Shown here: positions 3,686-40,399 of the stretch, piece after piece
How positions within the stretch are numbered: position 1 is the stretch's first letter
How the letters are laid out: each line of letters starts with the position of its first letter
Assembly: GCF_022846255.1 (NCBI RefSeq)
Contig: NZ_AP025682.1
Origin: Escherichia coli
GTDB taxonomy: Bacteria > Pseudomonadota > Gammaproteobacteria > Enterobacterales > Enterobacteriaceae
Length of the DNA: 64,000 nt
Reading direction: 5' to 3' (one strand)
Position numbers and translations under genes: made by a program
The notes under the pieces: generated by a model
The model's database searches: none
The model's input: only the letters and a program-made list of their open reading frames with translations
What the model was told of the DNA's origin: nothing

Positions 3686-5371
3686 ATGTTTAAAATTATG
3701 AATGCCCATAGTTTAGAGATGAGAAAAGAGTTAGGAGCATATTATACTCCAAGTGCTCTTAGTCAAGTGATGTCAGATTGGGCAATTAGAAGACCAACTG
3801 ATAAAATACTTGAGCCAAGTTTTGGAGGCTGTGGCTTTTTAGAAAGCTGTGAAAAGAGCCTCATGGAGATAGGCTGCATAAACCCAATGGAAAATTTATT
3901 TGGGGTTGATGTAGACCAAAAAGCCTTTGATACTCTCAAAAAAAAATATGGGCATTTATTAATAAAAAAACATTTCATTTTAAGTGATTTCATTAACGTA
4001 TTTCCAAAAGATTTTGGCATTGAAGATTTTGAGGTTATCATTGGGAACCCTCCTTATATCTCTATGCATAATATGAGTTATGAACAAAGGAAGTCCTGTG
4101 AAAAAGTTTTTGCTGACTCACCTTTTAAAACAAAAACATTAGGACGCAATGCAAGTCTTTGGGGGTTTTTCTTACTCCATGCATTAAGCTTCATTCGAGA
4201 AAATGGACGAATAGCGTGGGTATTACCGAGTAGTTTTTTAAATGCCTATTATGCGAAAGAGCTTATAAGAATTTACAAAAATCATTTTAACCATCTAAAA
4301 ATAATAAAGATAAATGAAAGACTTTTCAAAAATGAAGGTGCCGATGAAATGTCAGTACTTTTTTTATGCGATGAGTTTCACAGGACACCTATCAATAATG
4401 GATACGTTTCAATTGGATTTGCTGACACATTAAATGAACTAACCAGCATAATGACTGGAACTAAAGAAAACAAATTAAATAGCTCTGAAAATTACAAATA
4501 TAATATATTAGATATTGACACATTAAATGTGATATCGTCTATAACAGAACATAAGTACAGTTTAAAAATACAGGATATTGCTGATATAAAGATTGGGATG
4601 GTAACCGGCATGAACAACTTCTTTATATTGGATCAAAATCAAATTTTAAAACATAATTTAGACAATAAACATTTTAGACCAGTTATTTCACGATTTTCAC
4701 ATTTGAAGGGAATTCACCACACATTAAAAAGACATACGAAGTTAATTGCAGACAATAAAAAAGGATTGCTATTACACGTCAGTCCAGATGATTTATATGA
4801 AAAACATAGTCCGTTGAGAAAATATTTATCACAAGTTGATAGAAAAGAACGAGTCAAAAACCGCACATTCAAAAAACGAAAAAAGTGGTTTCAACCAGAT
4901 GATGGTATTTACCCAGACGCATTTTTTTCATATATGGTTCATGAGTTTCCCAGAATGATATTAAATAAAGGGAAAGTTAACTGCACTAACTCAATACATC
5001 GTATCTTTTTCAAAGATATAGCATCTAATAAATTAAAAAAAGCATGTTGCATATCTCTTTTATCAACATTTTCACAACTTTCTGCCGAACTTGAAGGTCG
5101 GTCATATGGCTCAGGTGTGCTAAAAATAGAGCCTACCGCAGGAAAGAACATATCATTCTTAATTAAAGATGATTTAATACACGAGTTAAGCAACTTAAGT
5201 AAAGAAATAGATCAATTGCTTTTAAATAATGAAACAAGCAATGCCACTGCTTTAGTTGATAAGTTTTTTGTTGATAAGGGACTAATTAGCTTAGATGAAT
5301 TGAAAAGTCTTAAAAAAGGGTTATTCAGATTAAGAAAAGATCGATATAAAGGGGTCAAAAATTATGAGTGA
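3686..5371 (+). CDS. N6-adenine DNA methyltransferase, gamma class (Eco57I/TaqI-like) with its own C-terminal target-recognition domain
   Basis: Motif order is GAYYTP (aa 17-22), then the AdoMet motif I EPSFGGCGF (aa 43-51), then the catalytic motif IV NPPY (aa 121-124). A C-terminal TaqI-like specificity signature is present: IKIGMVTGMNNFFIL. Confidence 0.85.
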   Translation: MFKIMNAHSLEMRKELGAYYTPSALSQVMSDWAIRRPTDKILEPSFGGCGFLESCEKSLMEIGCINPMENLFGVDVDQKAFDTLKKKYGHLLIKKHFILSDFINVFPKDFGIEDFEVIIGNPPYISMHNMSYEQRKSCEKVFADSPFKTKTLGRNASLWGFFLLHALSFIRENGRIAWVLPSSFLNAYYAKELIRIYKNHFNHLKIIKINERLFKNEGADEMSVLFLCDEFHRTPINNGYVSIGFADTLNELTSIMTGTKENKLNSSENYKYNILDIDTLNVISSITEHKYSLKIQDIADIKIGMVTGMNNFFILDQNQILKHNLDNKHFRPVISRFSHLKGIHHTLKRHTKLIADNKKGLLLHVSPDDLYEKHSPLRKYLSQVDRKERVKNRTFKKRKKWFQPDDGIYPDAFFSYMVHEFPRMILNKGKVNCTNSIHRIFFKDIASNKLKKACCISLLSTFSQLSAELEGRSYGSGVLKIEPTAGKNISFLIKDDLIHELSNLSKEIDQLLLNNETSNATALVDKFFVDKGLISLDELKSLKKGLFRLRKDRYKGVKNYE

Positions 5372-7673
5372 AGATATTCTTTTTTTGAAGGATAAGATGA
5401 AAGCCCTCCTGGATAATGAGGCTCTCGATTATGATAAAGTATTAGAAACAGCAGTAAAAATCACCGAAAAAGACAACAACAATATTAGATTTTCTGTAGA
5501 TGCGAATTTAGTTAGAAGATTAGGTGAGCAGTTAGTCGCTAAAAAAACTACTGCTGTCAGTGAATTGGTGAAAAATGCTTATGACGCAGATTCGACATTA
5601 GTAAATGTATATTTCGAATTGAACGAAGCAAATCCTCGAATAGTCATATTCGATGACGGCACAGGTATGTCAAAGGAAGATATTATCAATGGATTCATGC
5701 GAATAAGCACAAGTGAAAAAGAAGATAACTCTGTTTCAGAACGATATCAGAGACTAAGAGCAGGTAGAAAAGGTATTGGGCGTTTTTCTACACAGCGATT
5801 AGGAAATTATTTAAAAATAATTACCAAGCAAGAAAATGAAGAGTTAGGATATTTAATAGAAATTAACTGGCAGCAGTTTTCAAAAAAGAAAAATATATCC
5901 TTCATTGCTAACACTATCTCAAAAATCGATGTGGATTTCATTCATGGAACAAAAATAATAATAGAAGATCTGAATGATAAAGATTGGTCTGATGGGAACA
6001 TAAAAACGGCTTATAAATATATTAAGAGCATTATAAATATTGCCCCAAGCGAGACAGATCCAGGTTTCCAAGTAAAGTTCTATTATAAAAATGCCAATGG
6101 CTATGAATTAGTTGCAGATGAGAAAACTGAAATTTTTTCTGATAGTGATGCTCATATTACAGCAACACTTGAAAATGGAAATGCTGTAGTGAGAGTTAGC
6201 AGTGAAACCCTTGGCATAAAAAATGAAAGCATAGATGTATGGTATGATGAAAAAAATAACATACGAAAATTCTCACATATAAACTCTCCAGTAAAGCTTG
6301 ATGCATACTATTTCTCATTAGCAACAGTTAACTCCAGAAAACAAGCGGCATATTTACGTGAAAATGGCGGAATAAAAATCTATCGAAATGGATTCAAGGT
6401 TTCTCCTTATGGAGAGCAGTATGATGACTGGACGGCTCTTGATGACTCGGTTCGAAGGAGAAAGATATTACCCCCTCATGGTAATCAAAACTTCTTTGGA
6501 CACGTCAAAGTTGAAGACCTAAATGGAATAGACTTTGAAGAAACGTCCTCAAGGGAAGGTCTGATTCATACCGATGCCTTTCAAGAACTTCGCCTCTTTG
6601 TATATAAAGCACTGACGGCTGCGGTAATAAGAATTAGTGAAGCCAGAAATATAAAAATAAATCCAAATGACCGTAGCTATGTTAAAGAAACTAAACCAAC
6701 AATATCAGTCAAAGATAAATTAAATATTGTATCTGAAACGATAAGCTCGGTTAGTAAATTGGTAGATGCAGCAACATCTGTTGATGACGTTTCAAGTGAT
6801 GGTGTCATTAATAACATTGAAGATAAAAGTATAAGAAACAAAATTATTGAAGATCTCCATGAAGCCGCAGATGAGCTAAAACAAGCGAGTGTGATATCTC
6901 AATCTTTAATCGATGAAATTGAGCTTCTTAGAGTGCTTGGCGCTATGGGCCTTGCTATTGGTGAGTTTACACACGAAATAAATTTATCAATAACAAGTTT
7001 GAGTATTAACGTTCAAAACCTTAAACAGTCTAAATTATTAGAGGAAGATAGAGACTCTGCTCTAAATAGCCTTGAAAATAATATTGCAACATTAAAATCA
7101 TTTACTAAATTTTTTGACAGTACTATACGTGAGAATGTAAACAGAAATAAGAAAGTTATTGAGATAAGAGACTCTATTGAGCCATTTTATGAATCGATGA
7201 AACCAATAATAGAACGCAAAGGAATTCAGTTTGCAATACATTATGAAGGTTATGAACTTTTTACGAAGCCGATTCATGTTTCAGAGCTATATTCTGTATT
7301 TATAAATCTCTTTACGAATGCATATAAAGCAATACTTCGTTCTGGAACAAATCCACGAAAAATGTCTTTAACTGCGAAAAAAGATAGTGAAGATATAATT
7401 ATCCGATTCGAAGATAGCGGTGATGGAATTGAACCTGCAAATAGAGAAAGAGTTTTTGAGCCTTTCTATACAACAAGTACACCATCAGGACCTTTTGAAA
7501 GTGATGATTTATCATTAAAAGGAATGGGATTGGGGTTATCAATCGTACGTGATCTCGTTGAATCCATGTCTGCAGAAATATCTATAGTTGATGCATCCGA
7601 TGGTTTTACAACGTGCTTTGAGTTGAGAATTCCAAAAGCTGATGATAAGGAAATACCAGATGACATCTATTAA
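5364..7673 (+). CDS. double-GHKL protein: N-terminal MORC/MutL-like ATPase module + coiled region + C-terminal histidine-kinase core (H-box, N, G1, G2 boxes)
   Basis: N-terminal module: ELVKNAYDAD (N71, D74), DDGTGM (aa 97-102), GRKGIGRFS (aa 134-142). C-terminal module: IGEFTHEINLS (H537), INLFTNAYKA (N652), EDSGDGI (aa 683-689), GMGLGLSIV (aa 720-728). No predicted TM segment. The start overlaps the methyltransferase stop by 8 nt. Confidence 0.7.
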   Translation: MSEDILFLKDKMKALLDNEALDYDKVLETAVKITEKDNNNIRFSVDANLVRRLGEQLVAKKTTAVSELVKNAYDADSTLVNVYFELNEANPRIVIFDDGTGMSKEDIINGFMRISTSEKEDNSVSERYQRLRAGRKGIGRFSTQRLGNYLKIITKQENEELGYLIEINWQQFSKKKNISFIANTISKIDVDFIHGTKIIIEDLNDKDWSDGNIKTAYKYIKSIINIAPSETDPGFQVKFYYKNANGYELVADEKTEIFSDSDAHITATLENGNAVVRVSSETLGIKNESIDVWYDEKNNIRKFSHINSPVKLDAYYFSLATVNSRKQAAYLRENGGIKIYRNGFKVSPYGEQYDDWTALDDSVRRRKILPPHGNQNFFGHVKVEDLNGIDFEETSSREGLIHTDAFQELRLFVYKALTAAVIRISEARNIKINPNDRSYVKETKPTISVKDKLNIVSETISSVSKLVDAATSVDDVSSDGVINNIEDKSIRNKIIEDLHEAADELKQASVISQSLIDEIELLRVLGAMGLAIGEFTHEINLSITSLSINVQNLKQSKLLEEDRDSALNSLENNIATLKSFTKFFDSTIRENVNRNKKVIEIRDSIEPFYESMKPIIERKGIQFAIHYEGYELFTKPIHVSELYSVFINLFTNAYKAILRSGTNPRKMSLTAKKDSEDIIIRFEDSGDGIEPANRERVFEPFYTTSTPSGPFESDDLSLKGMGLGLSIVRDLVESMSAEISIVDASDGFTTCFELRIPKADDKEIPDDIY

Positions 7674-8763
7674 CCTACTTTATATCGATGATGATCAGCC
7701 TCAGCAAGTAAAGGGTTTAATTGAAGCAATAATCAGTAAAGCGAGTTTTGATTTAAATATAACTCATAAACCGCCGACGAAAATGAGTGAAATAGCCATA
7801 GAGTTGAGACAAGGTTATGATGGTATCATCATAGATCAAAAACTTGACAGCTTTGTTGAGGGAGTAGAACCAGTTGATTACTTTGGTGCCGCGTTAGCAC
7901 AAAATTTGCGAACACTCATGGCGGGTAAGTCAGATAATATATCTTATAAGCCAATAATTTTACTCTCTCTCGAAAGCTTATTAATTGAATATTATAATCC
8001 CGATTCAAGCTCGCATGATCTATTTGATTTAGTTTTGAGTAAAAGCATATTAGAACAACCAGAATTGTTAGAAAAAAAAGTTCACTTAATAAAATCTATT
8101 GTGAATGCTTACAAACGTGCACATTCGGAAGACTCGTTATATCAATTGCTTTCTCTGAGCAGTAATTATTCATTGCTTGATAAAAGATTTGAAATATATA
8201 TTTCTCAGTATGATAAAGATATACATAAGCTCGTCACATCCATACACTCCACACTTCTGAGAAGTAGTGGCATGTTAGTTTCTGAGATAACTTTGGCAAC
8301 CAGACTGGGTATTAATATTGAAGAATCGCCAGACTGGCACCAAGTAATTGGGCACCTTGAGGAATATAAATACAATGGCATATTCTCTGATTATTATAAA
8401 AGATGGTGGTGGGCAGATGTAGAGTTGTGGATAAATAAAAAGCTTAACTGCCCAATAATTAAAGGATTAACCTCAGAAAAAAGAGTGGAGATCATCAAAG
8501 AAAAACTTGGCTTAGAACGATTGATGCCAATTCATAGCGTACATCCAGGCCAAAGCACCAAGTTTTGGGTTAATTGTATCATCAGTAAAGAACCTCTTGA
8601 TACAATAGATGCTCTTCGTGCATCATCTATGGAATTAAAACCTTGGGAAGATGATAAATACCTTTCAATTAAAACAGTGTTAGAGAGACGGGCCGAAAAA
8701 TATAAAGTACATCCAGAAGATAGAACAAAATTGGATCGAATTCGGGCGAGGTTTAAATTATAA
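7660..8763 (+). CDS. receiver (REC)-like domain protein with uncharacterised ~230-aa C-terminal domain
   Basis: Numbering from the MTSINLLY start. The REC signature residues are in the right order: LLYIDDD (D10-12), GIIIDQKLD (D59), PIILLSL (S103), LVLSKS (K128). The C-terminal part (…YKRWWWADVELWINKK…) matches nothing I recognise. The ORF overlaps the upstream stop by 14 nt. An alternative start at 7642 is possible. Confidence 0.5.
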   Translation: MTSINLLYIDDDQPQQVKGLIEAIISKASFDLNITHKPPTKMSEIAIELRQGYDGIIIDQKLDSFVEGVEPVDYFGAALAQNLRTLMAGKSDNISYKPIILLSLESLLIEYYNPDSSSHDLFDLVLSKSILEQPELLEKKVHLIKSIVNAYKRAHSEDSLYQLLSLSSNYSLLDKRFEIYISQYDKDIHKLVTSIHSTLLRSSGMLVSEITLATRLGINIEESPDWHQVIGHLEEYKYNGIFSDYYKRWWWADVELWINKKLNCPIIKGLTSEKRVEIIKEKLGLERLMPIHSVHPGQSTKFWVNCIISKEPLDTIDALRASSMELKPWEDDKYLSIKTVLERRAEKYKVHPEDRTKLDRIRARFKL

Positions 8764-9506
8764 TGAACAATAATACAACTTTGTTAGACGATATGTGTAG
8801 GCTCAGGGACTTTTTATATGATAGCCGCATATGCCCAGATATTAATCCTCTCAACCGTTTAATCAGTAAACTTAATGCAAATCTCCACTCCGAAACAGGG
8901 GAGGACTTTGAATACTCTTTAGACGATTTAGTATTTTATCTTAGCGAAAAATCTGGAACAATTTGTCCGACCCAAATTACACCCAAAGAAAACCCTATTG
9001 AAATACATTTGGAACTTATATTAAAAAGTGAAGGCCCTTATGAATTTTCGAAGATTAAAGAACTTTCAGGGCAATTACGACTTAAAGCTGAGTGGATCAA
9101 TGACACAACAGAAAAAATTGAGATAAAAACATCACATAGTGCTTGGCATTTTGATTATCATGTTCCTCAAATGGGGGATGGCGTAAATTCATTTACTCAT
9201 CCTCAATTCCATTTACAAAATGGAGGAAACAGGCTGACTGATAATTTAAATGACTATGGAGAGTTAATGATTCTTGATGCTCCAAGACTACCTTTACCTC
9301 CTATGGATGTGATATTAGCCATTGACTTTATTATTTCAAATTTCTTTGGTTCTATTTGGCAACAAGCATTATGTGATTCAGAATACATTGATGTAGTTAA
9401 AAGAGCACAAAAAGCATGGTGGAAACCTTATTATGAAGGTATAAGTCAACACTGGTCTGGCAATGGCTCAGGAATATCCAATATCCTAATTCCAAACCTT
9501 CTGTAG
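8763..9506 (+). CDS. hypothetical protein, last gene of the operon (His-rich segment)
   Basis: ATG overlaps the upstream TAA (TAATG). 247 aa. Contains SAWHFDYHVPQMGDGVNSFTHPQFHLQNGG. No family recognised. Confidence 0.5.
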   Translation: MNNNTTLLDDMCRLRDFLYDSRICPDINPLNRLISKLNANLHSETGEDFEYSLDDLVFYLSEKSGTICPTQITPKENPIEIHLELILKSEGPYEFSKIKELSGQLRLKAEWINDTTEKIEIKTSHSAWHFDYHVPQMGDGVNSFTHPQFHLQNGGNRLTDNLNDYGELMILDAPRLPLPPMDVILAIDFIISNFFGSIWQQALCDSEYIDVVKRAQKAWWKPYYEGISQHWSGNGSGISNILIPNLL

Positions 9507-9771: not shown

Positions 9772-10185
9772 ATGAATGATAGGAATCATACTTTTAATAA
9801 GTTCGAGCCATTCAGAAGTTGTAGCTATGAAAATTTTACTTCTGCTAAAACACTCTCCCAGCAGACACGTTCTCATTGTATTAGTATCAGATTAAATGAT
9901 GCCGAGTTATCTTACGTTGATGGCTTACGAGAAGATCTCAACCGTGCTGTTTGGATACGTATGTCAGCATTGAATCGTCTCCCTTCCAAAATTCCTGAAA
10001 TAAATCTAATTGTCTGGAAAGACCTTGCCAAAGCATCTCAGAATCTGAATAACCTCGTTCAGCATCTCAACACTAAATCACACGATAGTCCTTTTACTAT
10101 CACCGAAATTTATACGGTACAAAAAAGAATAAAAGCACTAAGAGATGCCCTTCTGTCAGCAAATCGATCTGTCAGTGATAAATAA
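9772..10185 (+). CDS. MobC-like relaxosome accessory protein
   Basis: AAGGAG lies 6 nt upstream of the ATG at 9772. IRLNDAELSYVDGLRE... followed by a helical C-terminus is the usual MobC/ribbon-helix-helix pattern. The stop overlaps the relaxase start (TAATG). Confidence 0.6.
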   Translation: MNDRNHTFNKFEPFRSCSYENFTSAKTLSQQTRSHCISIRLNDAELSYVDGLREDLNRAVWIRMSALNRLPSKIPEINLIVWKDLAKASQNLNNLVQHLNTKSHDSPFTITEIYTVQKRIKALRDALLSANRSVSDK

Positions 10186-11372
10186 TGAAAGGGATGCAAA
10201 AAATCCGCAGAGGAAAGAGTTTTGCTGGTGTCGTCCTCTATGCGTTAAAGCCCGGTTCTCATCATAAAAAAGACCCTATCGTGATCGGTGGAAATATAAC
10301 GATAGTTGGCAATGCCGCTAAAGATCTGATCGCTGAATTTGATAGCACCAAACAGCTTCGCCCTGACGTGCAAAAGGCTGTTTGGCACAACTCGCTTCGC
10401 TTACCTAAAGGTGAATCACTAACGGCTAAACAGTGGTCTGAAATAGCAGATGATTACATGTCCCGCATGGGCTTCTCTGAAACGCATCTCAGATGCTACG
10501 TCCTACATGACGACGAAGATGGCCAGCACATCCATATCATCGCCAGCAGAGTGTCTCTTGATGCCGGAAAGCTCTACCTCGGCAGGAATGAGAACCTGGC
10601 AAGCACGAGAATAATTCAGCAACTTGAAAGAAATTACAATCTGACAAGAACCAAAGGGCCAGGAGCTAAAGCATCTACATCTTCTCTTTCCTCTAAACCG
10701 AAACATAAAAAATCACGTAATGAGGCTATGTTAGAGGAGAGAACTGGTGAACCATGCCCTAAATCCATCATCCAAAGGGCTATAGATTCGATAACATTAA
10801 ATCCTATAGCAATTGATGACTTCGTTGAAAAGCTGAATAGCATAGGGATTACGGCGAAAAGCAATATTTCTTCAACTGGCAAGATGAATGGATTTTCCTT
10901 TGAATGCAAAGGTGTTGTGTTCAAAGCTTCCCAGCTTGGCAAGAAGTATAGTTGGAAGAACCTGGAATCAATGATTTCAATGAATTACAACTCACACATT
11001 GGTGATGAAAAACCTGTCATCCCTGAACCTGCTGCCCATCGCAGCAACGAAGCTGTCATACCTATAGTGGAAGACTATTCTGATGAAAAGATTTACCCTG
11101 AGATAAGGGTACCCTTACCAAGACCTGACACAGCGCCCACAAAACCTACAAGCATGACAATGCGTTGGATCGCAACCATACCTTATCTTGTGAGTGTTAT
11201 TAGCGCACTTAAAACGATGCGTATCCCCTTTCTAAAGGCGTTCAATGGCCCAAGGAAGTTCTTTTCCGTGTCCATGATTCACCTGTCCTCTGTAAGCCTG
11301 AAACAGACCAAAACGAATAATTTCAAACCAAAAAGTTCCCACCAAAAGGCCCACAAGCCCCTTCTCCCCTGA
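10185..11372 (+). CDS. mobilisation relaxase (MobA/VirD2-type relaxase/nuclease domain)
   Basis: N-terminal FAGVVLYALKP (candidate catalytic Tyr). Conserved VWHNSLRLPKGESL block. Histidine triad YVLHDDEDGQHIHIIASRV. The C-terminal third is low-complexity and may be degenerate. Confidence 0.75.
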   Translation: MKGMQKIRRGKSFAGVVLYALKPGSHHKKDPIVIGGNITIVGNAAKDLIAEFDSTKQLRPDVQKAVWHNSLRLPKGESLTAKQWSEIADDYMSRMGFSETHLRCYVLHDDEDGQHIHIIASRVSLDAGKLYLGRNENLASTRIIQQLERNYNLTRTKGPGAKASTSSLSSKPKHKKSRNEAMLEERTGEPCPKSIIQRAIDSITLNPIAIDDFVEKLNSIGITAKSNISSTGKMNGFSFECKGVVFKASQLGKKYSWKNLESMISMNYNSHIGDEKPVIPEPAAHRSNEAVIPIVEDYSDEKIYPEIRVPLPRPDTAPTKPTSMTMRWIATIPYLVSVISALKTMRIPFLKAFNGPRKFFSVSMIHLSSVSLKQTKTNNFKPKSSHQKAHKPLLP

Positions 11373-12757: not shown

Positions 12758-12850
12758 GCCTTGAAAATATTAGCAAGATAATAATCCATAAAGGATAATA
12801 TAAAAACCAAAATAATATGCTACGGTAGTTGTTATAAAAATCACATAAAA

Positions 12851-13273
12851 CTACAGTCCATATTTTTTCCTTTTATCCTTCATCAATAATTCTCTTTTTA
12901 GGGTAGAAGCCTCATGTTTCCTTCTCTCATTAATATAGACTTTTTCGGTTCTACTACCATTGCTCACAATGAAATTGATAAGTGAAGAGCATACGTTTTT
13001 CATACGCTCTTTATCGAGCATGTCATTTTCAATATTATTGATATTGCAGTAATAAGAAAGTAGTAAAAAATTCAACACTACTTCCCTGTTTGAGAACGTT
13101 AGTTTTTCTATTTCAGGCTGGTATTTAATGTAGAACCCGGCACAAAACAGGTATGATTGTTCGATAATTTGTTGCTCTGAGAAGTCTGATTCAGAGAGTT
13201 TATCAACGAATCGATCAAGTAGAAGAAGATACCTTTCCATCAAATGAATATTTATTTTTTCCATAACATGCAT
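12851..13273 (-). CDS. hypothetical protein
   Basis: ORF only. The likely start is the second ATG (13264, MEKINIH...), which has AAGGA 8 nt upstream. Confidence 0.4.
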   Translation of the reverse strand: MHVMEKINIHLMERYLLLLDRFVDKLSESDFSEQQIIEQSYLFCAGFYIKYQPEIEKLTFSNREVVLNFLLLSYYCNINNIENDMLDKERMKNVCSSLINFIVSNGSRTEKVYINERRKHEASTLKRELLMKDKRKKYGL

Positions 13274-13357
13274 CCTTGCAATTTATTTTGCCATCCTGAC
13301 AATTAAATAAATACCATAATTATTAATCACGTCAATAGTTAAAACCTATCTATTTTA

Positions 13358-13756
13358 TTAAAGGTATTTTGCAGGTAACGGATTATTAAGTTCTTCAATC
13401 GTTATTTGTTTAAGGTGAGCATTATAAAGCCATACTTTGAACTGCTCTAAATAGCGTTCATTTAATGCCTTCAAAGCCTCATTTTCTGCTTCAAGTCTTC
13501 TAATTCGTTGAGAAGCCACTTTTAAATTAGCAGGTTTTACAGTATGTATTGCACCAGATTTGATAGTGGCCTTTTTCACACTGAAGCTTTCTGCAATCCT
13601 TACATGACTACTTAAGGATTGTCTTGATGGTCTTTTCCCAATAATCCTTACTAACCTGTCGCACAAAGCATCCCAGGTTAGTTTTTCATCTATAGACCAT
13701 GTGTTAATAACATCTACAATCTTCTTCTCATGATAACCATTTATATGCTTAGCCAT
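13358..13756 (-). CDS. small accessory protein of the recombinase module (coiled-coil C-terminus; TnpC-like position)
   Basis: Its start directly abuts the stop of the upstream recombinase gene (13757). RRLEAENEALKALNERYLEQF is a heptad-like segment. The call is positional only. Confidence 0.4.
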   Translation of the reverse strand: MAKHINGYHEKKIVDVINTWSIDEKLTWDALCDRLVRIIGKRPSRQSLSSHVRIAESFSVKKATIKSGAIHTVKPANLKVASQRIRRLEAENEALKALNERYLEQFKVWLYNAHLKQITIEELNNPLPAKYL

Positions 13757-15388
13757 TTATTCTCCTTTTTTTATTCTCTTATGGAATTCATACCATCTAT
13801 CAGCATTTATGTTCCCATCATTTTTATCATACAGTGTTCTTTTTGAAATTTTATCGTGAATTTTTGAAATCGTTTCGTTATCTAAACCAGAATTCTCAAT
13901 CGGATAATGTTCACACGGCTTAAACGCATATGAGTGCTTGCAGTAGCCATGTTTTGATACCAGTACTGCACCACTACTAAGTGAATCAAACTCATTAAGA
14001 ACCACCACTGGAATATCCTTTATTCTGTGCTCATTAACACACACTGATAACTTTTGTTCTCTTATTGCTTTAGACATTTGAAGATGCGATCTGTGGTCAT
14101 AAGAAAAATTTTGAGAAATAAGCTTACGTCCAGACCAGCGAGCAATACTAAACTCATCCATACCATTTATTTGAGCAAAAGTGTTGAGAAGATGCCTCAG
14201 TTGATGTGTTCTTAGCAAATATGGGCTACCATCATCATTTATATAACCATGTCTTTTAAATACATTTAAATATCCTTTTATATAATCAGAATCAACGATA
14301 TCAGTTTTAAAAAAATTCGTTGTAGGTCTGAATAACTTATCTAACATTTCCTTTTTATTTTGATTTAACTGTCCTTCAGTTAACAAGCAAAGCGCATTAG
14401 AATATTTGATTTTCTTCTCTCTATCATACCAAAAGAGATCTGGAGGTATATTTTCTTTAAGGGTTCCCATCGTTGAATTAGAGTAATTCTTTTGAATTTC
14501 AGCAGCCAATAATCTCGCTTGACTTGATAATTCTTTTAATCTGCTAATAGCCTTTTTTGCTACAGGTATCATTAAAGTTGGAATCCATTTTATATTGCCT
14601 TCATACCCTTTTGCTGAAAAAAATCTTAAACCGTATCTTTGAATGCCCTTTCCATCACATTCTGTAATTTCACAATCCACTGGCAAAGCTAAAATTTCCG
14701 ATATCCTACTCGGTGCACACATAAGTAAAGCAAGCACAGATGTAGTAAATATATCTCTTGACGATAATTGTTCATCCCGCTTTGAAAAAATCTCAGCAAT
14801 CGCAATAACTGATTTGATATCAGGCAATCTAGAATGGCCTTCCAGTGAAGAATCATAACCAGTCCAAGACTGAGTAATCCTATACCTAATTGGACTTATC
14901 CAAAATAAATAAGATGAGTTAGTCATCCTATTATCATTTAAAAATGAACTCAATTTCTCAAGTTCTTTCCCAATAGCAAATGCATGTGCTTTAGAATACT
15001 TTTCAGAGGCTATCCTTATGCATTCATCAAAGATTGAATTGTTGCAATAGTTTACATTAGCTTCCATATTGATTTTAAGTAAAACGAATTCGACAATCTT
15101 CAACATTGATAATGTTGAGTGTTTCGTCTTAGATTTATTGAATGAATGCACATGCAACATATATGCTTTAGCAAAATTAATAAAGCTATCATCTAAGCAT
15201 TCTTTGCTGTTTAGGTTGTTTTTTGAGTTAAACTTAGTAAACCTATATAAACCTTTCCATTTATTGCTTTCCCAAGAAGTTGTTAAATTATTATTAGAAA
15301 TAGTACTCTTACAAAACTCGATGAACTTAATAACATTATCGTGAGGGTTGTTTTTATTGCTTGGTTCAAAAATAAATATATTGTTCAT
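13757..15388 (-). CDS. tyrosine recombinase, third of trio (543 aa)
   Basis: Catalytic signature in order: CAPSRISEILAL (Arg), THQLRHLLNT (HxxR), NFSYDHR (Tyr). Overlaps the upstream gene by 4 nt. Confidence 0.7.
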   Translation of the reverse strand: MNNIFIFEPSNKNNPHDNVIKFIEFCKSTISNNNLTTSWESNKWKGLYRFTKFNSKNNLNSKECLDDSFINFAKAYMLHVHSFNKSKTKHSTLSMLKIVEFVLLKINMEANVNYCNNSIFDECIRIASEKYSKAHAFAIGKELEKLSSFLNDNRMTNSSYLFWISPIRYRITQSWTGYDSSLEGHSRLPDIKSVIAIAEIFSKRDEQLSSRDIFTTSVLALLMCAPSRISEILALPVDCEITECDGKGIQRYGLRFFSAKGYEGNIKWIPTLMIPVAKKAISRLKELSSQARLLAAEIQKNYSNSTMGTLKENIPPDLFWYDREKKIKYSNALCLLTEGQLNQNKKEMLDKLFRPTTNFFKTDIVDSDYIKGYLNVFKRHGYINDDGSPYLLRTHQLRHLLNTFAQINGMDEFSIARWSGRKLISQNFSYDHRSHLQMSKAIREQKLSVCVNEHRIKDIPVVVLNEFDSLSSGAVLVSKHGYCKHSYAFKPCEHYPIENSGLDNETISKIHDKISKRTLYDKNDGNINADRWYEFHKRIKKGE

Positions 15389-16710
15389 AATGCTCTCCAG
15401 GGATTGAATTTTTTACACGTTAAGCATTTCAAATCCTCTTTCGTATCTTCTAATAAGAAAAATGCATCTGAAACATACTTGATAAAAAAGTTCTTGTTTT
15501 CTTCAATCTCTATGCCCATAAGTATATTAGATAAGGGGTTAAAAAACGCACTTAGTCTCTTATCGATGTCATAAACGTTGTCAGGATTGTTTTTTATATA
15601 TATCATAGAAGAGTTTACTGATTTATGATCTAAGGCTTTAGCAATCACCTCAATTGAGGCTCCTTCGTTAGCCAGTCGACTTCCTAACGTATATCTGAAT
15701 CTTCTAGCATTAAGTTCTATATAGCTGTTAGTCCTTTCTGACCTAACATCGAATTTTGACGGAAAGTGTTTTAATAGTTTTGACATAACTGAATTTTTCA
15801 TATGGAAAAAATCTGTTGTTAAATCAGATAAAAAATCCTCAATCCTTTTTGTTTCCGTAATCTTATCTAAATTCATGAAGATTGGTAATTCGCCTCTATA
15901 GTTATTAATCCCAACACTGAATTTATCTTCAACAAACGCCTGATTTTGATTAATTAGCATTGATAAACTGTCATATAAGAACGGTTCTATCATTACCATA
16001 TTAAATTCTTTTCTGAAACATTTTCTTTGTTTTACTTTTGGTACATTCAAAAAGCACCCTCTCTCATTTTTAATGAGATCTTTAGCTTTTAGAGATATCA
16101 ATTGTAATGGCCTTCTTCCTGTTATTGCCAGCAAAAGGATATAACAATACAAAAAGCATTGAATTTTCTTCTCATGATAAAATTTTCCAACGGCGTTAAT
16201 AATGTTATTGAATTCCGTTTCAGTTAAAGGTCCTTTATTTGGATCTCGTCTTTTAACTGCATCTCCTGTTTGGTTTGGAATGATTTTTATTTTCTCCAGC
16301 ATTCTAATGGCAGTCGCATCTACCCCAGGGTAATTGAGATTTTTCCATTTAGTGATGAAAGCCTTAATTGAGTTTAGTTTGTAGTTTCTTTCTGAACCTA
16401 AATAAACATTCAATTGATATATTGCTTTGTCATCAATAGTATCGATGGTCATTGCACCAAACCACTTATAAAATAGATTGTTAATATTTTGTATATAAAA
16501 AGAACTATATTCAGACGCATAGTAAGCTAATGTTTTTAAGTAGCTAAGTTTCATTTTTGTAGGCATTCTATCTACAACTTTATGAGGGTATACGCAGTTT
16601 TCTTTATCAAGTTGCCATTTCTTATCTGACAGTTTGAAACTATATCTATTCATCTTAGCAAAAAAAATTTGCTCACTTTCAATACATTTTATTTCCACAT
16701 TAAACCCCAC
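15385..16710 (-). CDS. tyrosine recombinase, second of trio (441 aa)
   Basis: ITGRRPLQLISLK (Arg), ARRFRYTLGSRLANEG (xxR box), VNSSMIYIKN (Tyr). Overlaps the upstream gene by 11 nt. Confidence 0.65.
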   Translation of the reverse strand: MGFNVEIKCIESEQIFFAKMNRYSFKLSDKKWQLDKENCVYPHKVVDRMPTKMKLSYLKTLAYYASEYSSFYIQNINNLFYKWFGAMTIDTIDDKAIYQLNVYLGSERNYKLNSIKAFITKWKNLNYPGVDATAIRMLEKIKIIPNQTGDAVKRRDPNKGPLTETEFNNIINAVGKFYHEKKIQCFLYCYILLLAITGRRPLQLISLKAKDLIKNERGCFLNVPKVKQRKCFRKEFNMVMIEPFLYDSLSMLINQNQAFVEDKFSVGINNYRGELPIFMNLDKITETKRIEDFLSDLTTDFFHMKNSVMSKLLKHFPSKFDVRSERTNSYIELNARRFRYTLGSRLANEGASIEVIAKALDHKSVNSSMIYIKNNPDNVYDIDKRLSAFFNPLSNILMGIEIEENKNFFIKYVSDAFFLLEDTKEDLKCLTCKKFNPWRAL

Positions 16711-17905
16711 TAATTATTTTACTTACTGATTTATAGACCTTTAGGACGACATCCTTCTCTTGTTGGGATATATATTTAAAATTGTATCTATTACACATGA
16801 TTGACTCCTTTGACCAACCCATTAGATAATTCCTTAAATCTTTCCTTCTACTATATTCTAATTCAGCGCCTTCAATTCCTTTAGAATACATATAATTCCA
16901 AGAGTGCCTTAACCTATGACCTGAAAGATTATATAGCTTTGGACTTGCTCGTTTCAGTGTTGATATCACCTTCTCATAAGCTGAAATGCTTAAGGGTTCT
17001 CCTGCGTTTTTTCCGGTGCAATGAGCCACGAATAAGAAATTATGTTTTTTCCTTTTTGTCATTTTTTCCCTGCTATTGCTTATGTAATCAAAAATTTCAC
17101 TGGCTAACTCATCAGATAACGGAATAACCCTTTCTCCAGTCTTTACTAATGGCTGATAAGCTCTTCCATCTTCTTTTGAATCATGTCTTCTGACTACACT
17201 TAAAGTGTTGTCTCTGAGATCAAAATCATCTATTTTAAGATTGAGCAACTCTCCAGCCCTTAAACCTAAATTTAAGAGCAAGGTAAATATTAGTCTGTTC
17301 CTGACCTGTACTTCCTTATGAAAAGGGTTTTCAATCCCACCAATTTCCAATAGACGGAAAAGCACATTGATCTCTTCTTCATTTAACGATTTTTCAGATA
17401 TTTCATTCATATTCAATGAACTGTTTCTTGGAATATGTGCTCTGATACTTTCAATAAATACTTCTACTTCATACTTTGCATGAATCCCCTTTGACGAATG
17501 AACTAATCCACATAACCACTTAAGGTAGCGTGAAAAAACGTGTACTCTATAACTAAAGGTTCTCTTTGCAATAAACCTATTACTTGCTGATTTTATATTT
17601 ATAATTTTTTGTCTATCGAATCTTTGTTTCGCATATCTTACCAGATCATCTATTTCTGCAACGCTGAGATACTTTTTAAGCTCAATTCTCTCAACTATAT
17701 TAATTTTCCTACTATCTAAGAAATTACTAAAAATTAGTAAGTTAGTTGCAACTATTTCCATAGTTGAGGCGGTTGCGCCTCTATTTCTTATGTCTGTAGT
17801 AAGAAATAGATTTTGATAGTAAGCTGGTAGATTACTATTTTTATCAAGGATCAGGCATCCTCGCTCCCCATTACTCATGATGAATTTCTTTACTTTATAT
17901 CCCAT
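16700..17905 (-). CDS. tyrosine recombinase, first of trio (401 aa)
   Basis: NLGLRAGELLNLK (Arg), SGHRLRHSWNY (HxxR), MCNRYNFKY (Tyr). Confidence 0.7.
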   Translation of the reverse strand: MGYKVKKFIMSNGERGCLILDKNSNLPAYYQNLFLTTDIRNRGATASTMEIVATNLLIFSNFLDSRKINIVERIELKKYLSVAEIDDLVRYAKQRFDRQKIINIKSASNRFIAKRTFSYRVHVFSRYLKWLCGLVHSSKGIHAKYEVEVFIESIRAHIPRNSSLNMNEISEKSLNEEEINVLFRLLEIGGIENPFHKEVQVRNRLIFTLLLNLGLRAGELLNLKIDDFDLRDNTLSVVRRHDSKEDGRAYQPLVKTGERVIPLSDELASEIFDYISNSREKMTKRKKHNFLFVAHCTGKNAGEPLSISAYEKVISTLKRASPKLYNLSGHRLRHSWNYMYSKGIEGAELEYSRRKDLRNYLMGWSKESIMCNRYNFKYISQQEKDVVLKVYKSVSKIISGV

Positions 17906-18030
17906 TTTGACCTCATTCTTTACAAATTAATATCACTCTCACTTATTAAATATATTCCAATTCAAAATAATTCAAATTTTTTACAATGGCTTTAGTTTAT
18001 TTGGTATATATATTAATGGCTTGAAAAAAT

Positions 18031-18048
18031 TTATTTGACGTCAAATAA
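18031..18048. repeat. perfect 18-bp palindrome TTATTTGACGTCAAATAA upstream of the recombinase trio
   Basis: Read directly. A related half-site TACGTCAAATAT occurs at 18142-18153. Confidence 0.6.
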
Positions 18049-18287
18049 ACAGGTACGGCTAGTATTGAGTATCCATACCCGATATTAAGAAAACCATCTT
18101 CAACCCTTATAGCAAAAGCTCTGCTAGAAAAAAGGTAAAGAATTACGTCAAATATACTTATTTTTCAGATACAAACTTTACAAAGCCTCTTTTTTTTCAA
18201 AGCCACTAAGTAAACTCAAAAGATCTCTAAATTCCTTTTTCTTAATACATTATCAAAAGTTAAAAAATCCATGAAGCAGCATTCCTG

Positions 18288-18491
18288 TTAAGCGACATGC
18301 TTTCTTGAATTTTCGATAATTAATTGAATCCATTCATCGATTTCGCTTTCTACAAAAGCGGTAGCACGAATACCGATCTTTACTGGCTGTGGGAACCGAT
18401 TTTGGCTGATAAGACGATAGATCCACGCTTTACCAAATCCAGTTTTCTTCATGACTTCTGGTAAACGGATGAGACGAGCTTGATTTTCCAT
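18288..18491 (-). CDS. AlpA-family DNA-binding protein (excisionase/regulator type)
   Basis: From MENQARLIRLPEVMKKTGFGKAWIYRLISQNRFPQPVKIGIRATAFVESEIDEWI, the typical AlpA/MerR-like HTH sequence. I rejected the longer ORF start at 18575. Confidence 0.75.
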   Translation of the reverse strand: MENQARLIRLPEVMKKTGFGKAWIYRLISQNRFPQPVKIGIRATAFVESEIDEWIQLIIENSRKHVA

Positions 18492-18611
18492 ATGTATGTC
18501 CTCTGTTGTGTCTACAGGGCTACAGTACAAATGAATTTCGAATGGATGAAGCGAGATTACGAACATCAGAGCCATCCCTGGCTCGAAACTATGAGTCTCT
18601 GGAGATTCATA

Positions 18612-19481
18612 TCACTCAGAGTCTGAGAGTTTCATAACATCCGAAACCCTCATTTCTTTAACATGCTGATTTTTATTGATAAAAAAGTTAAATTGCCTTA
18701 AAAAATCAATTTCTACAGTTTTCATTGCGAAAGGCCGATCAGCATCTCTTATATGATATCCTTGGCGAATCGCCTTATCATCATCTTCATCCGTGTATAG
18801 CAATCGAGATAATCTGTCGTCTGACAGAAGTAATTTTTTTCTTTCTGACCATGCGAGCAAATCAAGCATAGGGATAATTCGATAGCTAATTAATTTTTTT
18901 ATTGCCCCATAACCAAATCTGACTGCATCAAGTGGTGCAGGTTTAACGCCTTTTACTTTTCGCCATTGTGGTAATGATACTCGCAGGGCCTCAGCTATCT
19001 CATCATCGCTTCCACCCGCAAGATCGATTTCTAACATAATCGTAGTAGGAAACTGTTCAGGAATTTTTTCGGAAATATATTCATTTTCAATAGTGGAATC
19101 AATTTTATATTGTTCTGTATTTGCTCTAATGAATAAAGCCTTTCTCATACAATCAAAACTGATATTTGCTATTCGATCAACAGTAGTAATAAAAAAGTAT
19201 GGGGGTTGATATAATTTATTTTCGGCATCCATATAATTTAAGTGCTTCTCTTTGATAAGAAAAGGATCACCATCCAATATCTGCATATAATTTTTCAATA
19301 CTGTTTTCTGCATTCCTTCTTCTATTACTGGTTTGAAAAAATAGGTTCTCGCCCATATTTCATGGTAAAGCATATTAATAGAAATGTTTTCAAACCCTCG
19401 ATATTTGTCCAAATCAAACCACGTTTTCACTGCTTTGGTGTCTTCTGATGTCCAACTATTCATTTTTACCCAAGATTTCAT
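18612..19481 (-). CDS. hypothetical protein between integrase and alpA-like gene
   Basis: ORF of ~290 aa. The start is ambiguous: ATG at 19481 with GGAG upstream, or GTG at 19523. No family recognised. Confidence 0.45.
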   Translation of the reverse strand: MKSWVKMNSWTSEDTKAVKTWFDLDKYRGFENISINMLYHEIWARTYFFKPVIEEGMQKTVLKNYMQILDGDPFLIKEKHLNYMDAENKLYQPPYFFITTVDRIANISFDCMRKALFIRANTEQYKIDSTIENEYISEKIPEQFPTTIMLEIDLAGGSDDEIAEALRVSLPQWRKVKGVKPAPLDAVRFGYGAIKKLISYRIIPMLDLLAWSERKKLLLSDDRLSRLLYTDEDDDKAIRQGYHIRDADRPFAMKTVEIDFLRQFNFFINKNQHVKEMRVSDVMKLSDSE

Positions 19482-19592
19482 TAATGCCACTCCGTTGTAA
19501 AAAGTTTTACTTCGTAATAGCACATAAATCGCAAATAAAAAAATGGCGTCTCAATTGGTTATTGAATACGCCATTTTACTCATAAAAATCAG

Positions 19593-20840
19593 TTAGTTAT
19601 TAAAATCAAAAGGTGCAATTCTTCTCTTAGTTGTTTCATCAAGATAATCAGCCCACCACTGCAACATCAACCTACGCTCATCCAAATGCTCAGCTTTATG
19701 AATGTATGCGGCACGAACGGAGTTCCGCTCCTGATGGCTCATCTGCCTCTCAACAGCATCTCTCGACCACTTTCCTGACTCGATCAAAGCACTACAAGCC
19801 ATCGCTCTAAAACCATGCCCACATACCTCAACGGTTGTGTCATAACCCATCGCCCTGAGCGCCTTGTTCACTGTGTTTTCGCTCATAGGTTTTCTGAAAT
19901 CATGATCGCCAATGAATACCAGGTCGCATTCGCCGCTGATTTCTCTGATGGCTTTTAGAAGTTCTAAAGCCTGACGACTTAACGGCACGAGGTGTGGGGT
20001 CTTCATTTTTGAACCTCGATGGGAATGTTTGACTCCTGGCAATAGCTCGCGTTCTCCAGGGATAGTCCACATCGCATTTTCAAAGTCGATCTCCGACCAT
20101 CTTGCGAATCGGAGTTCAATGGAACGGATAAAAATGAGCAATGTCAGCTTCACAGCTAATTTAGTAAGTTTCCTACCTTTAAAGCTTTCAATGCGCTCTA
20201 AAAGCTCTGAGAACCTATCAAATGGTAAGGCTGGTCTGTGGGTTCGTTTCGCAACTGTAATTGCCCCAGACATATCTTGTGCTGGATTGTAGTCAATTAA
20301 GCCATTCTGGACGGCATATCGCATTACTGCCGTAGTCCTTTGCTGTAGTCGGGAAGCAACTTCCAGTCGTCCAGAAGCTTCAACGGCCTTGATAGGGGCG
20401 ATAAGATCTCTGGTATTAAGCTCGGATATTTTTCTTTTACCAATAGCAGTAAAGAGACCATCCTCCATGCTTTTTAGAACTCTTTCGCTGTGAGAATCTG
20501 ACCATTTCCTTTTACAGGCAGTATGCCAGTCCCTTGCAACAGCTTCGAATGTCAGGGCTTCGCTTTGCTCAATCTTATCTGCTTTTTTCTTTTCAGAAGG
20601 ATCGATACCATCAGATACCAACTTTTTGGCTTCATCTCGCTTCCTGCGGGCTTCACCAAGAGAGACCATTGGATAAACACCCAATGCTAAAACTTTCTGT
20701 TTGCCCCCGAAACGGTATTGGAGTCGCCAGTACTTTGAACCATTGGGGTTGATCAGCAGGTGCATACCCTGCCCATCTGTGAGTTTGAAAGGTTTATCGG
20801 AGGGCTTTGTTGTTCGAACTTTGATATCAGTGAGTGCCAT
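19593..20840 (-). CDS. P4-type tyrosine integrase (intact, 415 aa)
   Basis: N-terminal arm-binding type sequence MALTDIKVRTTKPSDKPFKLTDGQGMHLLINPNGSKYWRLQYRFGGKQK. Catalytic region includes GHGFRAMACS (HxxR) and AAYIHKAE (Tyr). It sits adjacent to the tRNA 3' end. Confidence 0.9.
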   Translation of the reverse strand: MALTDIKVRTTKPSDKPFKLTDGQGMHLLINPNGSKYWRLQYRFGGKQKVLALGVYPMVSLGEARRKRDEAKKLVSDGIDPSEKKKADKIEQSEALTFEAVARDWHTACKRKWSDSHSERVLKSMEDGLFTAIGKRKISELNTRDLIAPIKAVEASGRLEVASRLQQRTTAVMRYAVQNGLIDYNPAQDMSGAITVAKRTHRPALPFDRFSELLERIESFKGRKLTKLAVKLTLLIFIRSIELRFARWSEIDFENAMWTIPGERELLPGVKHSHRGSKMKTPHLVPLSRQALELLKAIREISGECDLVFIGDHDFRKPMSENTVNKALRAMGYDTTVEVCGHGFRAMACSALIESGKWSRDAVERQMSHQERNSVRAAYIHKAEHLDERRLMLQWWADYLDETTKRRIAPFDFNN

Positions 20841-21029: not shown

Positions 21030-21114
21030 TGGTGCCGAAGGCCGGACTCGAACCGGCACGTATTTCTACGGTTGATTTTGAATCAACTGCGTCTACCGAT
21101 TTCGCCACTTCGGC
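21030..21114 (-). tRNA. leuX: tRNA-Leu (anticodon CAA)
   Basis: The reverse complement reads GCCGAAGTGGCGAAATCGGTAGACGCAGTTGATTCAAAATCAACCGTAGAAATACGTGCCGGTTCGAGTCCGGCCTTCGGCACCA. It is 85 nt with a long variable arm, CAA in the anticodon loop and an encoded CCA. Confidence 0.95.
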
Positions 21115-37872: not shown

Positions 37873-38064
37873 GAACTATATCCCTAAAATAAATTCCATT
37901 CATACCAATAATAATTCCAGTCAATTGATACTGGTTCGCCTAGAATACGCTTTATCTCAGAGAGATATGCTTAATATTTTCTGATTTATCTTCTTCTTGC
38001 ACCACCTAAGCGAGGGTGGTATTAAAGTGAGCTATAAATCATACATTTGAAATTGAGCTATGCT

Positions 38065-40328: not shown

Positions 40329-40399
40329 TTGATATCGCTATAAAGATGCCGGGAAATACAAAAACATCCCGGCGTCACATTATTTTATGCAGTGATAGT

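Follow-up and report, generated by a model that had tools for sequence, protein, structure and literature searches.

At this locus, a genomic island with an integrase of its own carries three further recombinases. The 64,000-nt window analyzed here (the whole stretch of DNA at its full length) represents the Escherichia coli chromosome around the tRNA gene leuX, its closest genome being that of strain TUM11353 (99.8% identical over the query). An island with a P4-type integrase lies at leuX, and nested within it, on the minus strand, are three consecutive tyrosine recombinase genes and a small fourth gene. An original prediction, made from the sequence of the window, had correctly recognized this multi-recombinase module inside an island with its own integrase, and had proposed that it was an independent mobile unit, akin to RIT elements or the Tn554 family, or a multi-recombinase integration/inversion machine, which may have delivered part of the island’s cargo. 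The module is the ginABCD operon of a known and already catalogued family, the GInts (also called the Tn6571 family), and is neither RIT nor Tn554. What we consider probable is that the operon is a cassette of a P4-integrated mobilizable island, with no separate nested transposon, and that a short site upstream of ginA is a GInt junction closed end to end (attI).

The open reading frames (ORFs) of 401, 441, 543, 132 and 140 aa on which the original prediction was based were all recovered on the minus strand, the first four making up the operon:

16700-17905, minus strand: ginA, a 401-aa tyrosine recombinase (Pfam PF00589, E = 1e-18)
15385-16710, minus strand: ginB, a 441-aa tyrosine recombinase with RxxR replacing HxxR (Pfam PF00589, E = 9e-12)
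13757-15388, minus strand: ginC, a 543-aa divergent protein of predicted tyrosine recombinase fold with an R-K-HxxR-W-Y signature
13358-13756, minus strand: ginD, a 132-aa small helical protein with a long C-terminal helix in its AlphaFold2 (AF2) model

The 4-nt overlap of ginB and ginC (ATGA) and the abutting of ginC and ginD (TAAATG), with the 140-aa ORF following, were as described, while the 11-nt overlap of ginA and ginB exists only for the longest ginB ORF (start GTG at 16710); with the RefSeq start of near-identical loci (GTG at 16698) ginB begins 1 nt past the ginA stop. Residue conservation was established from alignments of 74 to 78 homologous operons out of 78 genomic loci, and the Arg...(H/R)xxR...Tyr pattern claimed for each large protein held across them (GinA: R216, K255, H330-x-x-R333, W364 and Y374, each in 74/74; GinB: R200, K227, R339 and Y371 in 76/76 and H362 in 74/76, with an R336-x-x-R339 pattern; GinC: R228, K267, H395-x-x-R398, W418 and Y430 in 76 to 78 of 78). 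All three large Gin proteins combine the catalytic-domain fold of the tyrosine recombinase superfamily with its R-K-H/R-R-H/W-Y residues, though the route to that placement differed. Pfam placed GinA and GinB, the latter also scoring 325.6 bits against NCBIfam NF041502 (“site-specific integrase”), just below the cutoff of 350; GinC had no match in Pfam, NCBIfam, PADLOC or a PDB profile search, and its fold was recognized solely by a fold search with the predicted structure. Comparisons of the GinA, GinB and GinC profiles with hhalign gave weak local matches (E = 0.01 to 0.08) in the right motif register, which are not proof. The catalytic assignment of GinC is thus one of motif register and conservation, the model being weak around Y430. 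In the AF2 model of GinD (predicted local distance difference test, pLDDT, 86) a four-helix N-terminal bundle is followed by a 38-residue helix (residues 78-115), a predicted feature compatible with the earlier description of the small gene as coiled-coil; Foldseek returned no significant fold match for this model in PDB. All four gin genes are under purifying selection (ratio of nonsynonymous to synonymous substitution rates, dN/dS, of 0.1-0.3 against five related loci; ginA, 0.11-0.19). The C-terminal extensions of GinB (C429 and C432, in a CLTC motif) and GinC (C483, H485 and C492) bear Cys/His clusters conserved in 74-76 of 76-78 sequences, which may form a zinc site, perhaps one shared between subunits.

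The relation to RIT and Tn554 drawn in the original prediction holds in kind but not in family, as gene order and a published orthologue table place the module among the GInts. These elements carry ginA, ginB, ginC and a small ginD, all four of which are needed for excision and integration in Pseudomonas (Bardaji 2017, PMC5385486); several target the end of ssb (PMC5385486), and they have been reported as defense-carrying elements at several E. coli hotspots (PMC10121019). The ginC/ginD orthologue table of Idola 2023 (PMC10214605) lists WP_001052044.1 as ginD and WP_001579411.1 and WP_001059531.1 as ginC, and these are the near-identical GinD and 543-aa GinC orthologues annotated in related E. 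coli loci (GinD of the related loci is 97-100% identical to that of the window). Strain EC28, a carrier of the same leuX island, is among the entries of that table, and the accessions are not in the tfp/srap table of SEs, a second four-gene family (Additional file 3 of Idola 2023, PMC10214605). Scanning species-representative genomes with a GinC profile yielded the 78 loci, all from Gamma- and Betaproteobacteria, with the order ginA-B-C-D in 75 to 78 of them and ginD after ginC in 75/78. A distant set among them (GinC ∼30-34% identical and ∼606 aa long) follows ssb and uvrA directly in E. ruysiae, Scandinavium and Pseudomonas viridiflava, and the Gin proteins of the window share 30-37% identity with those of canonical, ssb-inserted GInt operons. 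Mapped against the empty K-12 site, a canonical GInt measured 11.9 kb, with the repeat CCGTTCT(A/G)(G/A) at the ssb stop and imperfectly inverted termini (GATTTACCTAAGA... and ...TATCAGGTTATC); in two canonical GInts mapped in this way, the first element base lies 158 nt upstream of the ginA ATG.

Within E. coli, the module was present in 381 of 5,426 complete genomes (∼7% of the collection), always as a single copy and never on a plasmid, and most of the sampled matches were O157:H7. The search for the trio at other chromosomal sites that the original prediction had proposed did find it at leuX, at thrW, beside yejO (proL) and beside ypjA (ssrA region), with the same backbone each time. The slot is constant: DUF6387 and AlpA on one side of gin and ORF137(-ORF221), relaxase and MobC on the other, even where the gin types have diverged. 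It recurs in ∼25 loci of other Enterobacterales (Klebsiella, Enterobacter, Pantoea, Erwinia, Pectobacterium, Brenneria, Xenorhabdus, Kosakonia and others) at tRNA-Thr, tRNA-Leu or tRNA-Arg genes. The trio was thus always found in exactly this island context, and no independent ends were seen, the very outcome that the original prediction had named as counting against its reading. In a sister island at leuX of E. coli STEC17-183 (L006), which lacks gin, a 93%-identical integrase, DUF6387 and AlpA are present and ORF137 and the relaxase are kept. The exact ginABCD slot of this island (10410-11509 in L006) holds a replication-initiator (Rep) gene and an 84-aa gene. Because the slot is constant across sites and genera and a Rep module replaces gin in L006, we regard gin as a cassette of the island backbone; the occupation of one slot by either Rep or gin suggests alternative cassettes for what to do after excision.

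The limits of this cassette were read from pairs of islands with the same backbone and different gin operons (L004 and L008, L004 and L009, the window and L025):

13322-18184, minus strand: exchangeable gin module, ∼4.9 kb, with no cargo gene
12851-13273, minus strand: ORF140 (137 aa, and there called ORF137, in RefSeq-style annotation), a backbone gene

The segment that differs begins 130-180 nt upstream of ginA, on the side of AlpA and of the repeat described below, and ends 40-90 nt downstream of ginD, and in two independent pairs identity drops from ∼100% to ∼65% at the repeat and its neighboring palindrome. L025 matches the window at 100% in AlpA and 95% in the P4 integrase and at 67% in GinA; L011 matches it at 98% in GinA and at 50% in DUF6387. 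As read from these alignments, the gin cassette is swapped between backbones as a unit. Islands sharing a gin type have in common a conserved block of 5.35 kb (12834-18184), 95-96% identical among the leuX, ypjA and yejO islands, in which the flanking sequences either show no relationship or reach 77% identity at most. Between the module flanks, neither direct nor inverted repeats exceeded chance (best direct score 10, against a shuffle mean of 10.2), the only island repeats being the tRNA-derived ones. ORF140 belongs to the island backbone, outside the gin module, because it is kept (68% nucleotide identity) beside the Rep module in L006; it is 95-100% identical between L004 and L009, while their gin operons are ∼65% identical. 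With the exchangeable unit devoid of cargo genes and the 140-aa ORF part of the backbone, there was no evidence for the suggested delivery of cargo by the module. The relaxase and defense genes were also considered as GInt cargo in the linear sense and rejected, since the gin-less sister island keeps ORF137 and the relaxase. A TTGAC(G/A)T motif downstream of ginD was discarded as a second core site; it is unchanged across gin types and resembles the −35 box of ORF137.

The upstream border of the exchangeable unit coincides with a composite site in the ginA leader, which in gin orientation reads TTTGTAAAG...(104 nt)...GGGTATGGATAC TCAAT ACTAGCCGTACC TG TTTATTTGACGTCAAATAAA...ginA:

18081-18184, minus strand: 104-nt AT-rich segment starting with TTTGTAAAG, which accompanies the gin module in every context
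18069-18080, minus strand: left arm GGGTATGGATAC of a core-like inverted repeat
18064-18068, minus strand: hypervariable 5-nt spacer, TCAAT in the window
18052-18063, minus strand: right arm ACTAGCCGTACC, starting 158 nt before the ginA ATG
18030-18049, minus strand: 20-bp perfect palindrome TTTATTTGACGTCAAATAAA, unique in the window
17906-18029, minus strand: ginA leader/promoter region, with TTGTAAAR repeats at 17979-17986 and 17918-17925

The 12-nt arms, an imperfect inverted repeat (GGTATGG/CCGTACC), hardly vary across 23 loci, drawn from at least 10 genera, in which 21 different spacers were counted. Among 12 loci of the same gin type (66 pairs, which are not independent, so that the contrast is no formal test), p-distance was 0.69 in the spacer, 0.007 in the arms and 0.071 at 459 four-fold degenerate sites; the four-fold rate would predict 23.5 spacer differences, and 228 were observed. 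Between the window and strain A42, three of five spacer bases differ but just 0.9% of four-fold sites. Gin operons of Pectobacterium have, at the equivalent place, different arms that covary with each other, forming perfect 11-17-bp repeats around a variable 5-6-nt center. The right arm begins at the position of the first element base of canonical GInts, 158 nt upstream of ginA in both. On the other side, homology to the O157 and E29 islands begins exactly at the TTTGTAAAG segment, the sequence to its left being unrelated, and this 104-nt segment is common to type-1 and type-2 gin modules.

Two loci have the module ends apart. In Pectobacterium zantedeschiae (L026), homology stops exactly at the border of spacer and right arm, and the locus has no DUF6387, AlpA, 104-nt segment or left arm. 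In a metagenome contig (L089, Ga0308166_1015487, positions 2369-2434) it breaks at the same border, leaving 61 nt of right arm and palindrome that are 98% identical to a Candidatus Pantoea locus; this was the only relic in the one metagenome scan made for separated arms. The contig has 25% G+C and is packed with tandem paralogous genes of ∼125 aa, and the 5 nt preceding its arm (TCTTT) are the spacer of a Kosakonia locus (L020).

Beside the repeat, the palindrome occurs in two forms among the window, L009, L017-L021, L024, L025 and L030: TTTATTTGACGTCAAATAAA and, in type-2 gin modules, TTTCTTTCACGTGAAAGAAA. They track the gin type and not the AlpA type, and they differ symmetrically on both halves, so that the palindrome is preserved. 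It is probably, to judge from this pattern of substitution, the binding site of a dimeric protein of the Gin module, perhaps GinD. The palindrome was also tried as the crossover site and set aside in favor of the hypervariable repeat beside it, which fits better. Three of the seven TTGTAAAR matches in the 64-kb window fall within 17918-18183, all in gin orientation.

In Tn554, SEs and GInts, the element ends are described as meeting around a short stretch that derives from the preceding site of insertion (PMC10214605, PMC5385486). The site upstream of ginA reads as such a pair of joined ends (attI/attS) because it has an invariant inverted repeat, a randomized center and the position at which GInts end. 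The closed junction would then consist of the 104-nt AT-rich segment, proposed here as the 3′-end arm of a GInt, a 12-bp arm, a 5-nt crossover or coupling spacer and the inverted 12-bp arm, the second arm taking the place of the 5′ terminus in integrated canonical GInts. Read in this way, 13322-18184 would comprise all parts of a minimal GInt with its ends joined (3′ arm, core, 5′ arm and ginABCD), and the island would be, topologically, a GInt circle that also bears a P4 integrase and attP and is opened at attP rather than at attI, with the remainder of the island, P4 integrase included, as its cargo. GinA, GinB and GinC, with their active sites intact, would act together with GinD on attI and recombine it with sites in other DNA, once the island has been excised or through the capture and release of circles. 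The reversal of such an event would rewrite the spacer, as has been described for junctions of Tn554, SEs and GInts, and would account for the different spacers of almost all lineages. The role of the repeat as Gin crossover site, and that of this reaction in rewriting the spacer, we infer from these parallels. We found no description in the searchable literature of such an embedded, cargo-less closed-junction arrangement with a hypervariable core.

A more far-reaching version of the closed-junction reading, which we put forward tentatively, is a dual-integrase element: a GInt circle that acquired a P4-type integrase with attP and a relaxase, and that could insert either at tRNA genes or, via its intact attI, into other replicons, or else could capture and release circles or plasmids at attI while chromosomal, as Hfr-like cointegrates. 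The tRNA-inserted state was that of every genome examined. If this version were true, each Gin round would leave a new 5-nt “fingerprint”, the spacers would record GInt-type strand exchange across nonhomologous centers, and all three paralogues, GinC included, would be catalytic.

Several observations weigh against the closed junction. No copy integrated through the site was found, the junction being closed in 362/363 E. coli genomes and in all 23 loci with these arms, and no partner site (attB) was identified. Plasmids of PLSDB carry no module of this gin clade: all 88 plasmid matches were <60% identical to GinC, those listed being 34% identical, which is consistent with the canonical GInt type. 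(That canonical clade, with GinC 34% identical, was recovered from at least 40 plasmids of E. coli and from several of Salmonella, the majority being conjugative.) Among the sampled O157:H7 genomes (all at 91.0% identity) the spacer does not vary; rewriting must therefore be rare, with no ongoing phase variation, and the non-independence of locus pairs noted above limits the contrast in p-distances. The GinC alignment contradicts two published descriptions in which GinC is without part of the catalytic motif (the first arginine missing in one, the RHRY motif absent in the other), and the low-confidence stretch of the AF2 model of GinC (residues 423-438) takes in the proposed Tyr430. Lastly, the site may have a terminator or operator role in E. 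coli-type modules.

It is unlikely, in our estimation, that the module is an independent nested mini-GInt, as the original prediction would have it; such an element would be self-mobile, 4.9-5.4 kb long and site-specific for the position downstream of alpA, with ends at ∼18184 (TTTGTAAAG) and at ∼13321 or 12835. The conserved 5.35-kb block amid unlike flanks at leuX, ypjA and yejO is what such an element would leave, its left edge falls at the identical base in two flank types, a TGTAAAG motif is found near the canonical GInt 5′ end as well, and distantly related GInts are known to share a target (PMC5385486). Yet the module always sits once per genome in the AlpA-ORF137 slot, never outside it, in two copies or on plasmids; no empty AlpA-ORF137 site was found, the only gin-less relative having the Rep module there; and flank repeats do not exceed chance. 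The right edge, moreover, shifts with the comparison (12834, 12849, 12858 and ∼13321), as expected of homologous exchange in a mosaic backbone, and both putative termini lie side by side within the block.

It is likewise improbable that Gin is a domesticated accessory system that integrates nowhere and acts only on copies of the island, in resolving multimers of the excised circle or in swapping or inverting modules. There is one site per island beside the genes, as in cer-, dif- or loxP-type resolution, and the alternative cassette in the slot, a replication module, would likewise serve circle maintenance. The breakpoint of type-1/type-2 module exchange falls at the site, and the interior of the proL island is inverted relative to its tRNA and integrase when compared with leuX and thrW. 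Recombination between identical copies, however, cannot make new spacers, and the spacers look randomized; four proteins, three of them catalytic, far exceed what resolution needs; and the canonical relatives integrate and excise. The inversion itself extends over DUF6387-AlpA-gin-ORF137-relaxase-cargo in both the proL island of E. coli E29 (L010) and the ypjA islands, and both interior orientations are bounded by tRNA-derived repeats, which implies that int-attP modules have been swapped or flipped.

We give little credence to the repeat and palindrome being transcription signals only, either tandem terminators after alpA or a gin operator, with the Gin substrates elsewhere or the system inactive. 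As RNA, the two would fold into two stable hairpins followed by a U-run (−16 kcal/mol, z = −3.2), the palindrome has kept its symmetry despite changes as a hairpin or operator would, and canonical GInts have a GC-rich terminator hairpin ∼125-130 nt upstream of ginA, near the position of the group-1 palindrome. A freely drifting loop, though, cannot change about ten times faster than neutral sites do, no T-run follows the Pectobacterium repeats, the border of spacer and arm is the exact point of two independent homology breaks, and the genes, whose active sites are intact, show purifying selection. Each of these three main rivals fails to explain at least one of spacer saturation, fixed context and exact homology breaks. 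Finally, membership of RIT, Tn554 or the NCBI “gamma-mobile-trio” can be dismissed as highly improbable, since the three adjacent recombinase genes (as in RIT), the small fourth protein and short variable junction (as in Tn554) and weak NCBIfam GmtY matches (E = 1.6e-5 and 8.6e-5) stand against a conserved fourth gene, the absence of flanking inverted repeats, orthologues listed as ginC/ginD, homologues that are all proteobacterial with gin synteny, and GmtY scores (24.3 and 21.9 bits, cutoff 340) on which the GmtX/Y/Z trio was rejected.

The carrier itself fits a P4-type integrase tRNA island, with the integrase beside the tRNA gene and the tRNA 3′ end present again, as a direct repeat, at the opposite border, and its G+C content is 30-38% between the island repeats against ∼50% outside:

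21030-21114, minus strand: tRNA-Leu(CAA) gene leuX, the attachment site
21036-21053 and 2946-2963: island direct repeats CGAAGGCCGGACTCGAAC, 18 nt, from the 3′ end of tRNA-Leu
18288-20840, minus strand: island integration module, with AlpA (18288-18491; PF05930), DUF6387 (18612-19481/19523; PF19924) and the P4-type integrase (19593-20840; PF13356, PF22022 and PF00589)
9772-11372, plus strand: MobC-like gene and MobA/VirD2-family relaxase, island backbone (Pfam PF03432, E = 1.6e-26)

From the tRNA gene the order is P4-type integrase, DUF6387, AlpA, the four gin genes and the 140-aa ORF; on the opposite strand follow a DUF4755 gene, the relaxase and the MobC-like gene, and beyond these a methyltransferase, a double HATPase protein and two genes without assignment. 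The relaxase and MobC downstream of gin are conserved in ∼24 Enterobacterales loci, and the proL island of E29 is bounded by a 21-nt tRNA-Pro repeat. Paired TATGCCTA...TATGCCTAAAAG motifs adjoin the tRNA-derived repeats in L026 (7064-7337) and L010 (5330-5420) and are likely arm-type binding sites of P4-type integrases. The cargo (3686-9506) comprises an Eco57I/N6-type methyltransferase (561 aa), a 769-aa protein with two HATPase_c domains (a weak PADLOC REase_II match) and two proteins of 373 and 247 aa with no family match, and looks like a restriction-modification-like or novel defense operon; sister islands have at this position a different methyltransferase/HNH set or ABC-three-component and SIR2 systems. 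Past the far island repeat, the window contains (547-2818) a WYL-domain protein and a second P4-like integrase, which is truncated to its arm and central domains (289 aa). A truncated second integrase past the repeat points to tandem islands at leuX, of which it and the WYL gene are remnants. Strain TUM11353 has a type I restriction-modification system directly past the far repeat of the island. Further patches of low G+C content in the 50% G+C chromosome (37000-38000, 39%; 40000-42000, 34-37%) are probably other horizontally acquired segments.

The locus represents an Enterobacterales clade in which GInt modules are exchangeable cassettes of tRNA-integrating mobilizable defense islands. Counted as GInts in mobile-element censuses, such islands blur the line between GInts and integrative mobilizable elements (IMEs). 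A repeat with a saturated 5-nt center offers a precise candidate for the Gin crossover site and, for the recombination mechanism of GInts, SEs and Tn554, a cheap read-out by amplicon sequencing of five bases. The full catalytic signature in GinC, at odds with published statements, suggests a machine with three active sites.

Among known systems, EARL/ROD21-like islands (e.g., ICEKp258.2) and P4-integrase mobilizable islands resemble the carrier in their P4-type integrase at a tRNA gene, AlpA-family directionality factor, DUF6387 gene, relaxase and defense-type cargo; the described members are without a gin operon, and their relaxase is annotated as MobQ type where that of the window is MobA/VirD2 type (PF03432). 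RIT elements share with the module three adjacent, often overlapping tyrosine recombinase genes. They are, however, bounded by long inverted repeats and are not known to have a conserved fourth gene, whereas the module has a conserved fourth gene and no flanking inverted repeats. Tn554 of staphylococci (tnpA, tnpB and tnpC) is alike in transposing by tyrosine recombinases, in its small third protein and in a 6-bp junction sequence carried from site to site (summarized in PMC10214605), but it has two recombinases against three, Firmicutes hosts and, according to Idola 2023 Fig. 1b (PMC10214605), no BLAST-level similarity. SEs (strand-biased circularizing integrative elements, intA-tfp-intB-srap; Idola 2023, PMC10214605) are alike in having a four-gene core of recombinase-fold proteins and a small protein, and in a circular junction (attS) where imperfect inverted-repeat termini meet around a short spacer, the “fingerprint” of the previous site (PMC10214605). 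Where SE termini are 13-19-bp C and C′ sequences around a 6-bp spacer, the module has a 12-bp imperfect repeat around a hypervariable 5-nt spacer, in joined form in all loci except L026 and L089. SEs also differ in that the module has no entry in the tfp/srap table, SE and GInt proteins cluster separately, the middle protein here has a catalytic-type motif, and SEs are rare in Enterobacterales, the hosts of the module.

With GInts the module shares the four-gene operon and its order, homologous proteins, a small helical fourth protein and a putative crossover site, ∼158 nt upstream of ginA, in which inverted-repeat arms enclose a short variable center. In a typical GInt, the gin operon stands at the 5′ end of the island, cargo extends from the ginD stop to a short AT-rich 3′ end, and imperfect direct repeats of 10-17 nt (attL/attR) flank the element. 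Here the operon is internal, 3.1 kb from the tRNA end, the exchangeable unit is cargo-free, no such repeats surround it, and the tripartite layout emerges only on the view that the island is a circle which has been opened at the P4 attP. Further differences are that GinC retains the full R-HxxR-Y signature, that the carrier has a relaxase and is integrated at a tRNA gene by a P4-type integrase, and that the putative termini are abutted as a closed junction. In this last respect, the minimal joined GInt proposed for the window resembles the synthetic pGInt0 of Bardaji et al. (PMC5385486).

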